Shown piece by piece: positions 29,326 through 30,199 of a DNA stretch of 64,000 bases. The DNA lies in the sequence record PQ014731.1. One strand, written 5' to 3'. Within the stretch, counting starts at the first letter, position 1. Each line of letters starts with the position of its first letter. The notes beneath the pieces were generated by a model. It did no database searches and was not told where the DNA came from. It worked only from the letters and a program-made list of their open reading frames with translations. A program made the translations under genes and the position numbers. The DNA is from Escherichia phage VB-EcoM-WM.

Positions 29326-29751
29326 ATGATTTATGAAATGCCAAAACTGATTCGTGATGATGCCCAAAACGCTCACACCATTATTATGGGCAAACGCATG
29401 GATATTATTTGTCATAAAGATTTCTGGGAAGGAAGTTACTTCACAGAGTATTTTGGTAAACTGGACAATGGTCTGCTGATCCAGTTCTACACCGATGCGG
29501 AAAACAACATTCACTGGGAGTTCGAAACTGAAGATATCCATAAACTTTTCACCTTCCTCGGTATTAAGGTTGAGGCCAAGTTTGAAGAAGGCGAGTGCGA
29601 CGATTGTGGATTCTACGAGGTAACAGATTTCTATCTCCCAAGTGGTGAGAACCTTTACTATGAAAGCCACTTCGGCAACTCAAATATGCCACAAGGTTGG
29701 GATGAGTTTTTTGAAATTGCGGGAGAGGAGCTGGCATACCGTGATTATTGA
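29326..29751 (+). CDS. hypothetical protein (141 aa)
   Basis: ORF-track ORF. Confidence 0.5.
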   Translation: MIYEMPKLIRDDAQNAHTIIMGKRMDIICHKDFWEGSYFTEYFGKLDNGLLIQFYTDAENNIHWEFETEDIHKLFTFLGIKVEAKFEEGECDDCGFYEVTDFYLPSGENLYYESHFGNSNMPQGWDEFFEIAGEELAYRDY

Positions 29752-30199
29752 TACTGTAGAGGGAGATTTAATCTCCCTTTTTAAGAGCGGTGCTGGTCAC
29801 CTGATCCACGGTTGTAACTGCTTCCACACAATGGGCAAGGGGATAGCAAAACAGATTGCCCGTGAGTTCCCTCAAGCATTGGCAGCTGACAAAGAGACCA
29901 GACACGGTTGCCTAAGTAAACTGGGTGCGTTCTCCCGATGGGAGCACTTATCTCCGAGAGGTATTGTCTACGGAATCAATCTGTATACTCAGTTCTACCC
30001 AGGACCTAATGCTGAATATTTCTCAATCCTGAAAGGCTTTGAGCTAGTCAATGAGGTATTCAGTGGATCGACTTTACCATTCTACATCCCTAAGATCGGG
30101 TGCGGCATAGGCGGTTTGAAGTGGGAGCACGTAGAGGACGTTATTAACCTTGCCACTTTTGATATGAATATTATCGTGGTGGAGTACAAAAAGTGTTGA
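29741..30199 (+). CDS. macro-domain protein (ADP-ribose binding/processing)
   Basis: HGCNCFHTMGKGIAKQIAREFP and IGCGIGGLKWEHV resemble macro-like domain signatures; start adjusted to GTG 29741 after RBS GGGAGAGGAG. Confidence 0.65.
   Translation: MIIDTVEGDLISLFKSGAGHLIHGCNCFHTMGKGIAKQIAREFPQALAADKETRHGCLSKLGAFSRWEHLSPRGIVYGINLYTQFYPGPNAEYFSILKGFELVNEVFSGSTLPFYIPKIGCGIGGLKWEHVEDVINLATFDMNIIVVEYKKC

Follow-up and report, generated by a model that had tools for sequence, protein, structure and literature searches.

When transposon mutants of phage T4 were screened on DarTG2, tk.4 was the sole significant hit, and its clean knockout makes the phage DarTG2-sensitive; the gene was named adfM, anti-DarT factor Macrodomain, in a preprint reporting this genetic evidence (bioRxiv 10.1101/2025.11.20.689424). 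The same name is carried by gp104 of PhiKZ, a stand-alone macrodomain of nucleus-forming phages which also counters DarTG2, strips ADP-ribose from DarT2-modified oligonucleotides (Cell Rep 2026, PMC13309987), is expressed late and is imported into the phage nucleus (PMC13309987). The Streptomyces coelicolor protein SCO6735 takes ADP-ribose off thymidine in ssDNA and rescues cells from DarT, activities which are lost in the Q85A/E and N27S mutants (PMC9411070). In the Vequintavirinae, some phages (Bas60-62) carry a NADAR, AdfN (PMC11825919), and in the literature we found no experiment on a Vequintavirus macrodomain and no paper linking those of the Vequintavirinae to DarTG2.

The DNA analysed here, which we refer to as the window, is a stretch of 64,000 nucleotides from Escherichia phage VB-EcoM-WM (PQ014731.1), a Vequintavirus (rV5-like) E. 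coli phage. Translation of 29741–30199 on the plus strand gives 152 residues followed by TGA, and both motifs from which the first-pass annotation had called a macro-domain protein here lie in this ORF, HGCNCFHTMGKGIAKQIAREFP as residues 23–44 and IGCGIGGLKWEHV as residues 119–131. The gene family, that of T4 Tk.4/AdfM, is already described, the window gene being its representative in a Vequintavirus, and we consider it probable that its product strips ADP-ribose put on phage DNA by host DarTG2. The features of the locus are as follows.

28500–28521: terminator-like hairpin, upstream of the next promoter match
28960–28988, plus strand: sigma-70-like promoter match, TTGACA-17-AATTAT with extended TG, found by consensus match
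29326–29751, plus strand: upstream ORF of 141 aa, PHROG 8157, with an 11-nt 3' overlap with the macrodomain start
29722–29730, plus strand: Shine-Dalgarno-like run within the end of the upstream ORF, found by sequence inspection, putative role
29741–30199, plus strand: CDS of the macrodomain protein, 152 aa, stand-alone, Tk.4/AdfM family, PHROG 335, GTG start and TGA stop
30196–30224, plus strand: sigma-70-like promoter match, TTGACA-17-TATAGT (11/12) with extended TG, found by consensus match

The longest mechanical ORF begins at 29642; this start was rejected, as it would place the ORF in out-of-frame overlap with the upstream gene, and homologues start at the position of the GTG. The GTG at 29741 is the likely start codon since it overlaps the stop of the upstream ORF (cGTGATTATTGA), follows the Shine-Dalgarno-like GGAGAGGAG at a distance of 10 nt, is the start annotated in GenBank relatives, and aligns with an ATG in the RB49 and T4 homologues (MIIDTVKGD and MIVKYIKGD, respectively). 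The overlap suggests that the upstream ORF and the macrodomain gene are probably co-transcribed and translationally coupled, a pairing which is not kept outside the Vequintavirinae, where the upstream genes of RB49 and T4 differ. Small same-strand ORFs surround the gene, and between 26.6 and 31.5 kb the sole Pfam domain among its neighbours is a phage zinc-binding domain. Sigma-70-like promoter matches are enriched around it (21 vs. 12.5 ± 3.1 expected, one of them a perfect consensus): for the gene string 29060–30199 the closest strong candidate is the match at 28960–28988, and that at 30196–30224 spans the stop codon of the macrodomain gene and would serve the small genes that follow. The early-region setting assumed for the gene in the first-pass annotation is thus plausible from the sequence. 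No structured RNA was matched by Rfam in the window at the gathering threshold. At the DNA level the macrodomain gene is 100% identical in phages EPFV3, O157 typing phage 4 and BP9, where it is annotated as ‘macro domain protein’ or ‘O-acetyl-ADP-ribose deacetylase’, and many GenBank records label the same gene ‘macro domain protein’ or ‘phosphatase’.

The assignment to the macro domains was borne out by Pfam, PHROG, a profile search of the PDB, and an AlphaFold2 model searched with Foldseek, all of which agree. The Pfam Macro profile (PF01661) scored 28.3 bits against a gathering score of 22 (E-value 1.9e-6), and PHROG 335 was matched at 4.8e-59. The best sequence match in the PDB was the DarG macrodomain (4e-7 with the single sequence; 7e-17 with a profile, to the Mycobacterium tuberculosis protein), and SCO6735 was matched at 9e-16 in the profile search. 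The AlphaFold2 model (pLDDT 95.6, pTM 0.90) has the three-layer alpha/beta/alpha macro fold, with TARG1, Poa1p, T. aquaticus and M. tuberculosis DarG, BT1257 and SCO6735 as the top Foldseek matches (TM 0.72–0.85; probability 1.00 to many solved macrodomains, TARG1, Poa1p and DarG among them). As judged by profiles and a predicted structure, with matches far above chance level, the protein is confirmed as a macrodomain.

Within this fold class, the protein is homologous over its full length to T4 Tk.4, which aligns over residues 1–150 with 39% identity and 63% positives (BLASTP, E-value 4e-40). Both are stand-alone macrodomains of ca. 150 aa in PHROG 335 (the window protein has 152 aa against a family median of 157), and they share the motifs HGCNCFHTMG, NLYTQ and P.IG.GIG with a Gln at the catalytic position. 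The family signature HGCN ... NLYTQ ... P.IG.G.GG is present in the window protein, and T4 and RB3 Tk.4 share its signature residues. The pair differ in that T4 Tk.4 belongs to the Tevenvirinae and the window protein to the Vequintavirinae, in their neighbours (vs and tk.3 beside T4 tk.4, an unassigned ORF upstream in the window), and in that the demonstrated anti-DarTG2 phenotype is that of T4 Tk.4; the RB49 (Krischvirus) copy is much nearer to the window protein, at 69%. It is this relatedness to Tk.4/AdfM that makes the protein a likely anti-DarT2 eraser, and the role suggested earlier, of reversing ADP-ribosylation imposed by the host, is likewise supported by homology, although 39% identity leaves room for a changed substrate.

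Alignment of the protein with macrodomains of known activity, and with 226 diverse family members, placed four conserved elements in its active site.

29807–29818, plus strand: His23-Gly-Cys-Asn26 motif
29831–29842, plus strand: first glycine loop (GxG), which follows strand 2 and serves in ADP-ribose binding, Met31-Gly-Lys-Gly34
29978–29992, plus strand: Asn80-Leu-Tyr-Thr-Gln84 motif
30089–30115, plus strand: second, phosphate-binding glycine loop Pro117-Lys-Ile-Gly-Cys-Gly-Ile-Gly-Gly125

Asn26 aligns with N22 of DarG, N27 of SCO6735 and N23 of PhiKZ AdfM, and His23 with H24 of SCO6735; mutants of the equivalent residues have been described (PMC9411070, PMC13309987). The asparagine is kept in 226/226 family members and the histidine in 220/226. 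The first loop aligns with MGKG in DarG and WGKG in SCO6735, G34 being invariant and M31 almost so; Lys33, at the position of SCO6735 K34, is not conserved (Ala in 142/226; Ala, Ser or Gly in most). Gln84 sits where DarG K80, TARG1 K84 and PhiKZ AdfM K78 place a catalytic lysine and where SCO6735 has Gln85, and it is found in 224 of the 226 members, with N80 and Y82 each in 225. MGKG (residues 31–34), N26 and IGCGIGG (residues 119–125) are invariant or almost invariant across the family. With Gln84 and Asn26 present, and neither the catalytic Lys nor the catalytic Asp, catalysis would be expected to depend on how the substrate is placed and on a water molecule, not on a lysine, and a Gln held at the Lys position throughout the Tk.4/AdfM family suggests a mechanistic tie to SCO6735. 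That the whole family, the T4 protein included, is Gln-type is a slight step beyond the literature consulted.

Each of the known systems shares a different subset of these features. SCO6735 and the Bacteroides protein BT1257 (PDB 5e3b and 2fg1/2afc) are Gln-type ALC1-like macrodomains with Gln at the DarG K80 position, and have in common with the window protein the Gln-positioning Asn, the preceding His, the GCG.GG loop and a stand-alone architecture without an adjoining cognate DarT. They are, however, bacterial rather than viral and only 24–27% identical to it, and cleavage of dT-ADPr on ssDNA, established for SCO6735, is a predicted activity here. The mobile loop behind their Gln, rich in lysine (K89, K93) and used by SCO6735 to hold DNA, is 6–7 residues shorter in the window protein and in Tk.4. 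The absence of both this longer loop and the catalytic lysine of DarG counts against a DNA eraser role, as does the poor conservation in the family of Lys33, whose SCO6735 equivalent K34 helps to position DNA. DarG (M. tuberculosis 5m3i, T. aquaticus 5m31/5m3e) shares the fold and the Asn, but differs in having a C-terminal DarT-binding domain, an adjacent darT and the catalytic Lys80, where the window protein has Gln84 and neither of the others. The sole NCBIfam match was antitoxin_DarG (NF048014), limited to the macro part of that model (positions 3–139 of 338; 47.4 bits vs. a cut-off of 250), and the protein stops after the macrodomain. A true DarG antitoxin is ruled out, as the C-terminal domain, darT and the Lys are all missing. 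PhiKZ gp104 is 24% identical to the window protein against 36% to M. tuberculosis DarG and is Lys-type (K78) without the His, whereas the window protein is Gln-type with His23; the two AdfMs are different lineages, with a probably different chemistry, and their shared name is a coincidence of naming.

In a protein of this kind catalysis might also play little part, with protection coming mainly from binding, either of DarT, which is thereby blocked, or of an ADP-ribose ligand, which is sequestered. The inactive SCO6735 mutant Q85A retains inhibition of DarT in vitro, to a greater degree than dead DarG or TARG1 (PMC9411070), and AdfA and AdfB, which are phage factors, work by binding to DarT (PMC11481870). 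We regard this as very improbable for the window protein, in that N26, Q84 and both glycine loops are almost fully conserved across the 226 diverse members, and the DarT-binding C-terminal domain is absent (the NCBIfam DarG match covering only the positions given above).

The remaining structural relatives, human TARG1/OARD1 (PDB 4j5r; Foldseek TMq 0.78, TMt 0.85) and yeast Poa1p (PDB 6lfq; TMq about 0.72), share with the window protein the N-terminal (V/I)xGD...H.C motif at 22–26% identity. Efficient reversal of U-ADPr on RNA has been described for TARG1 and for bacterial macrodomains of its type (PMC13036486), and SCO6735 also clears ADP-ribose from auto-modified PARP1 (PMC9411070), so that the window protein could instead erase ADP-ribose from RNA (uracil-linked) or protein (Glu/Asp-linked), placed by a host or phage ADP-ribosyltransferase, with DarT2 products as at most one of its substrates. 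The Lys84/Asp125 dyad by which TARG1 de-modifies proteins is nevertheless absent: Gln84 replaces the lysine, and the second catalytic residue, which in TARG1 lies in the second glycine loop, is replaced by Gly. Nor was an ADP-ribosyltransferase gene found adjoining the macrodomain gene, in the Pfam families listed for the window, or in five distant family contexts, and the phenotype in the T4 screen was specific to DarTG2 (10.1101/2025.11.20.689424). A link between the T4 macrodomain and mRNA ADP-ribosylation was sought in the CmdTAC paper (PMC11618068), where macrodomains occur in the references only. Two further points favour a wider substrate range, namely that the family is more widespread in phages than one defence system would seem to require, and that two adjacent, different macrodomain genes on one contig suggest a division of substrates; overall we find a role on RNA or protein unlikely.

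Poa1p is a phosphatase for a small molecule, Appr-1''-p, and is among the best matches of the window protein in both sequence and fold. His23 and Thr30 fall at the Poa1p positions mutated in PDB 6lfs (H23A) and 6lft (S30A), in alignments which leave out the central part of Poa1p; this correspondence is a point against a DNA eraser role and makes a small-molecule substrate possible. The protein might then act as an ADP-ribose-1''-phosphate phosphatase or an O-acetyl-ADP-ribose deacetylase, the activities to which its database names (‘phosphatase’, ‘O-acetyl-ADP-ribose deacetylase’) refer, or it might break down toxic metabolites or immune signals derived from ADP-ribose. The Rnl2-type ligase, Thg1 and AAA_33/KTI12 kinase-like genes near distant homologues might point to such a small-molecule role. 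The ‘phosphatase’ label, however, is a legacy of the old A1pp motif name rather than the result of an assay, and no Tpt1/KptA or 2H phosphoesterase, the makers of Appr>p and Appr-1''-p, was found among the 25 listed of the 31 Pfam families in the window or in the distant contexts. Phage NADARs, for which a similar argument was once made, act on DarT1-modified DNA (PMC11825919), and the sole functional data for the family, on T4 tk.4, point to DarTG2, a DNA modifier (10.1101/2025.11.20.689424). We therefore consider a small-molecule substrate quite unlikely.

The distribution of the family bears on the same question. Its frequency was 2722 of 50,697 phage records, with 4472 clusters at 50% identity, and this wide spread may mean that there are substrates beyond DarT2 products. 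Across six distant family loci no conserved partner gene was found, and the contexts were varied, including replication, RNA-repair and NADAR surroundings. Three of the six have RNA ligase, PNK-like or Thg1 genes close by, which counts against a DNA eraser role. In its favour, a NADAR gene, for an enzyme of the kind that counters DarT1, is found 0.5 kb away from one homologue, and another homologue is inside a DnaB/primase replication module. On one phage contig two different macrodomain genes stand side by side. In the window itself (99 ORFs) no NADAR, ART or DarT partner was present among the neighbours, ten larger ORFs or the 25 listed of 31 Pfam families, no ADP-ribosyltransferase gene adjoins the macrodomain gene among the neighbours examined, and a family HMM run against the six-frame translation found no second macrodomain, the ORF at 29741–30199 being the sole match. 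We took DarTG2-sensitive phages for comparison from papers later than the one that first described DarTG as a phage defence (LeRoux et al. 2022); in T5, which is one of these (10.1101/2025.11.20.689424), no Tk.4/AdfM family member was found in 112 kb of unique sequence (positive controls at 1e-50, 2e-65 and 8e-14), a correlation in favour of the anti-DarTG2 role. On K-12, which is without DarTG, insertions were recovered at 31/31 sites of bas54_0092 and 45/46 sites of T4 tk.4; the former, the syntenic gene of phage Bas54, is thus non-essential on this host, and is presumably an orthologue of the window gene from its identical gene order and lengths. Together with a dN/dS of 0.23 for the macrodomain gene against a 90%-identical relative, these insertion data suggest that the gene is accessory in character.

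Fold, family membership, conserved residues, domain architecture and gene context are results of this analysis; what the enzyme acts on, which defence it targets and when it is expressed we infer as follows. The protein would be an ALC1-like macrodomain, the class of TARG1, DarG, SCO6735 and Poa1p, working as a stand-alone ADP-ribosyl glycohydrolase and made during infection, probably early, from host-type promoters. It would bind ADP-ribose placed by the DarT2 toxin of DarTG2 on thymidine bases of single-stranded phage DNA, in an SCO6735-like active site where Asn26 keeps Gln84 in place, and would hydrolyse the base-ribose bond such that replication can proceed. It would in effect be an ‘orphan antitoxin’, lacking the DarT-binding domain of DarG.

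A broader reading is that Tk.4-type macrodomains form a separate Gln-type lineage, nearer to SCO6735/BT1257 than to DarG in active-site chemistry, which erases ADP-ribose linked to N3 of thymine and uracil, in DNA and RNA alike; we consider this doubtful, but such a general eraser would protect phages from more ADP-ribosyltransferase defences than DarTG2, and could explain both the presence of the family in ~5% of sequenced phage genomes and the existence of two-macrodomain phages and of frequent RNA-repair and NADAR neighbours. For the window phage we favour removal of DarT2 modifications from its DNA. The rV5-like phages are broad-host-range E. coli phages, which are used in O157 typing and have been considered for therapy and biocontrol. 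A likely anti-DarTG2 enzyme in these phages, where carried, would help predict which defence systems they overcome.

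The macrodomain gene at 29741-30199 (+) translates into 152 residues followed by TGA. The mechanical ORF list carries the frame back to 29642; we set this longest-ORF start aside for GTG 29741, which overlaps the upstream ORF 29326-29751 at its TGA (cGTGATTATTGA), has GGAGAGGAG ten bases on its 5' side, is the annotated start in GenBank relatives, and aligns with the ATG start codons in RB49 and T4. As GTG 29741 is a credible start, the coordinates of the first-pass annotation are exact, and both motifs it had singled out occur in the translation, HGCNCFHTMGKGIAKQIAREFP at residues 23-44 and IGCGIGGLKWEHV at residues 119-131.

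The proposed macro domain was borne out by the Pfam Macro profile (28.3 bits, cut-off 22), in agreement with PHROG 335, labelled 'phosphatase' (4.8e-59), and with structural modelling. The top sequence matches among solved structures were the M. tuberculosis DarG macrodomain, yeast Poa1p, S. coelicolor SCO6735, Bacteroides BT1257, T. aquaticus DarG and human TARG1, and these PDB matches improved to 7e-17 - 2e-13 with a profile of 66 homologues. An AlphaFold2 model built with the 66-homologue alignment was very confident (pLDDT 95.6, pTM 0.90), and Foldseek against the PDB returned the same structures first (TARG1: TMq 0.78, TMt 0.85), then viral and histone macrodomains. The protein belongs to the ALC1-like (TARG1/DarG) macrodomain class. 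Its sole NCBIfam match, the DarG antitoxin equivalog (47 bits, cut-off 250), spans model positions 3-139 of 338; since this covers the macro part alone, the phage protein is a bare macrodomain, whereas the DarG antitoxin also has a DarT-binding domain.

In profile-based and MAFFT alignments Gln84, in the invariant NLYTQ motif, shares a column with K80 of DarG, K84 of TARG1 and K78 of PhiKZ gp104, whilst Gln occupies that column in T4 Tk.4, RB3 Tk.4, BT1257 and SCO6735. TARG1 has a second catalytic residue, Asp125, where the phage protein has Gly. With Gln at the Lys column and Gly at the Asp125 position, the Tk.4/AdfM family is, as judged from alignment, Gln-type. Across the family Asn26 is invariant, Gln84 is kept in 224/226 members and His23 in 220/226. 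One Gln-type enzyme, SCO6735, has been studied: on ssDNA it removes ADP-ribose from thymidine at high turnover, and it protects cells from DarT, Q85A/E mutants are inactive and N27S nearly so, and in the proposed mechanism an Asn27-locked Gln85 positions the distal ribose whilst a water molecule attacks (PMC9411070). SCO6735 differs in a longer Lys-rich loop after the Gln, which the phage proteins lack, and its K34 corresponds to Lys33 here, which is not conserved across the family. Catalytically dead SCO6735 still inhibits DarT (PMC9411070), as would a non-catalytic DarT binder, but near-perfect conservation of the catalytic residues is hard to reconcile with such a role, which we regard as very improbable.

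The T4-like homologue is Tk.4, a CHARACTERISED protein whose gene is flanked by vs and tk.3 and bears the annotation 'phosphatase; contains A1pp motif'. Tk.4 aligns end to end with the phage protein (39% identity, E 4e-40). DarTG2 is a defence whose toxin DarT2 puts ADP-ribose on phage DNA. A T4 transposon library grown on DarTG2-expressing E. coli yielded tk.4 as its single significant hit; a clean knockout rendered T4 DarTG2-sensitive, and the gene was renamed adfM, with enzymatic removal of ADP-ribose from DNA proposed (10.1101/2025.11.20.689424, a November 2025 preprint). T4 without AdfA and AdfN still resists DarTG2, and a further factor had been predicted (PMC11825919). T5 is DarTG2-sensitive in both papers (10.1101/2025.11.20.689424, PMC11825919); its 112 kb of unique sequence yielded no family member (best E-value 0.07; positive controls T4 1e-50, RB49 2e-65, PhiKZ 8e-14).

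The counter-defence role suggested at first pass thus finds support in Tk.4 homology, T4 genetics and SCO6735 biochemistry. Fold, family, residues and architecture come from the present analysis; substrate and target we infer from the T4 genetics and the SCO6735 biochemistry. The best-supported reading, and probably the correct one, is an orphan, Gln-type ADP-ribosyl glycohydrolase that would strip ADP-ribose from DarT2-modified thymidine in phage ssDNA. Erasure of ADP-ribose from RNA or protein, for which one can cite the reversal of U-ADPr on RNA by TARG1-like enzymes (PMC13036486) and PARP1 as a further SCO6735 substrate (PMC9411070), seems unlikely as the main function. Hydrolysis of a small-molecule ADP-ribose derivative, argued for phage macrodomains generally by Iyer et al. 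(PMC9503650) and echoed in 'phosphatase' and 'deacetylase' database labels and the similarity to Poa1p, we consider rather unlikely. Either activity may coexist with the DarT2 role.

Downstream of rIIA/rIIB and the helicase genes, the gene forms part of a long same-strand series of small, functionally unassigned ORFs. Sigma-70-like promoter matches are enriched at 26-33 kb (21 observed, 12.5 +/- 3.1 expected from shuffles), and three lie between small genes, downstream of a hairpin:

28500: strong terminator-like hairpin
28960-28988, +: sigma-70-like consensus match, TTGACA-17-AATTAT
30196-30224, +: sigma-70-like consensus match, TTGACA-17-TATAGT, extended TG, across the macrodomain stop codon
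30649-30676, +: perfect sigma-70 consensus match, TTGACA-16-TATAAT, 12/12

The enrichment and the hairpin would fit early transcription by host polymerase. No ART, DarT or NADAR gene was found among the neighbours, ten larger ORFs or the 25 of 31 families listed in the Pfam survey, and one macrodomain ORF, without a second, was found in the window. Gene order and lengths match bas54_0087 to bas54_0093 of phage Bas54 exactly. The counterpart by order and length, bas54_0092 (459 nt), tolerated transposon insertions at 31/31 sites on K-12, a host without DarTG, and is therefore non-essential; T4 tk.4 tolerated them at 45/46. A counter-defence gene should behave in this way where the host lacks the defence in question.

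Other features of the window are as follows:

13344-14672, +: 442-aa DNA methylase, N6_N4_Mtase (E 9e-42)
26618-27889, +: 423-aa protein without Pfam domain, PHROG 4477 (unknown function)
27774-28484, +: endonuclease VII/HNH-like ORF, PHROG 1035 (E 3e-41)
56287-57336, -: Clp-protease-like protein (Pfam survey)
59801-60733, -: 309-aa protein with DUF723, CapR, treble-clef zinc finger and T5orf172 (Pfam survey)
60844-61851, -: nrdD part, NRDD positions 263-562 and glycyl-radical domain
61972-62523: HNH/NUMOD-like endonuclease ORF between the nrdD parts
62575-63744, -: nrdD part, ATP-cone and NRDD profile positions 1-263

The 27774-28484 ORF overlaps the 3' end of the 423-aa gene; the close relative EPFV3 lacks ~640 bp there, whilst the ORF is present in Bas54 (bas54_0088, 'putative homing endonuclease') and SYGMH1 ('endonuclease VII'). 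Lying 1.3 kb upstream of the macrodomain gene, it probably represents the insertion of a mobile homing endonuclease. The syntenic counterpart of the 423-aa gene, bas54_0087, is scored 'Essential' in HIDEN-SEQ data (insertions at 8/57 sites), which marks an essential gene of unknown function amid an otherwise dispensable early region. EPFV3 apparently lacks the methylase, its annotation passing from ORF46 directly to small ORFs, and the methylase may be variable anti-restriction cargo. The anaerobic ribonucleotide reductase gene nrdD occupies two ORFs (60844-63744, -); Rfam found no group I intron there at the gathering threshold, and the gene seems to have been interrupted either by a homing endonuclease of the free-standing kind or by an intron that goes unrecognised. 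Further domains from the Pfam survey, which covered 99 window ORFs, were the hibernation-factor-like Ribosomal_S30AE (E 1.7e-12) and Phage_1_1.

The 2 kb around the gene share 95-99% identity with many Vequintavirus (rV5-like) E. coli phages, and the gene is 100% identical at DNA level in JES2013, O157 typing phage 4, BP9 and EPFV3, under the labels 'macro domain protein', 'phosphatase', 'O-acetyl-ADP-ribose deacetylase' or 'hypothetical protein'. Within Vequintavirus a dN/dS of 0.23 indicates purifying selection. Sixteen unannotated 'Campylobacter phage' records labelled C. jejuni (MG065644-MG065690; A142, C7, D1 and others) are 91-99% identical to this region; mislabelling or assembly from contaminants may explain this. 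More widely, tblastn found homologues in 2722 of 50,697 phage records, mainly large myoviruses, and an exhaustive HMMER search gave 4472 clusters at 50% identity (E<=1e-3), or 1331 (E<=1e-10); almost all are ~150-aa stand-alone proteins. The macrodomain of the Krischvirus RB49 (3001-3453 of its extracted locus) shares 69% identity with the Vequintavirus protein but only ~40% with T4 Tk.4, a sequence pattern which suggests lateral exchange between Krischvirus and Vequintavirinae lineages.

Among distant homologues, one overlaps the end of a DnaB-type helicase gene and adjoins a primase, and another is near RNA ligase and PNK-like genes. On phage contig L011 the homologue (5001-5453) is next to Thg1, near an Rnl2-type RNA ligase and 0.5 kb from a NADAR gene (5991-6737), whilst metagenomic phage contig L015 carries a Tk.4-type macrodomain (5001-5459) and, two genes apart, a second, different Pfam-recognisable Macro gene (5948-6391). 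At both loci, ADP-ribose erasers may be clustered with RNA-repair genes.

Neither the macrodomain assignment, which records of the identical gene already carry, nor the family's anti-DarTG2 role, reported in 2025, is new. PhiKZ gp104, also called AdfM, is Lys-type and shares 24% identity with the Vequintavirus protein vs 36% with Mtb DarG, which by sequence comparison places it in a separate lineage from Tk.4-type proteins. Our additions are modest: a predicted Gln-type site shared with SCO6735, and two 'AdfM' proteins that would belong to different lineages.
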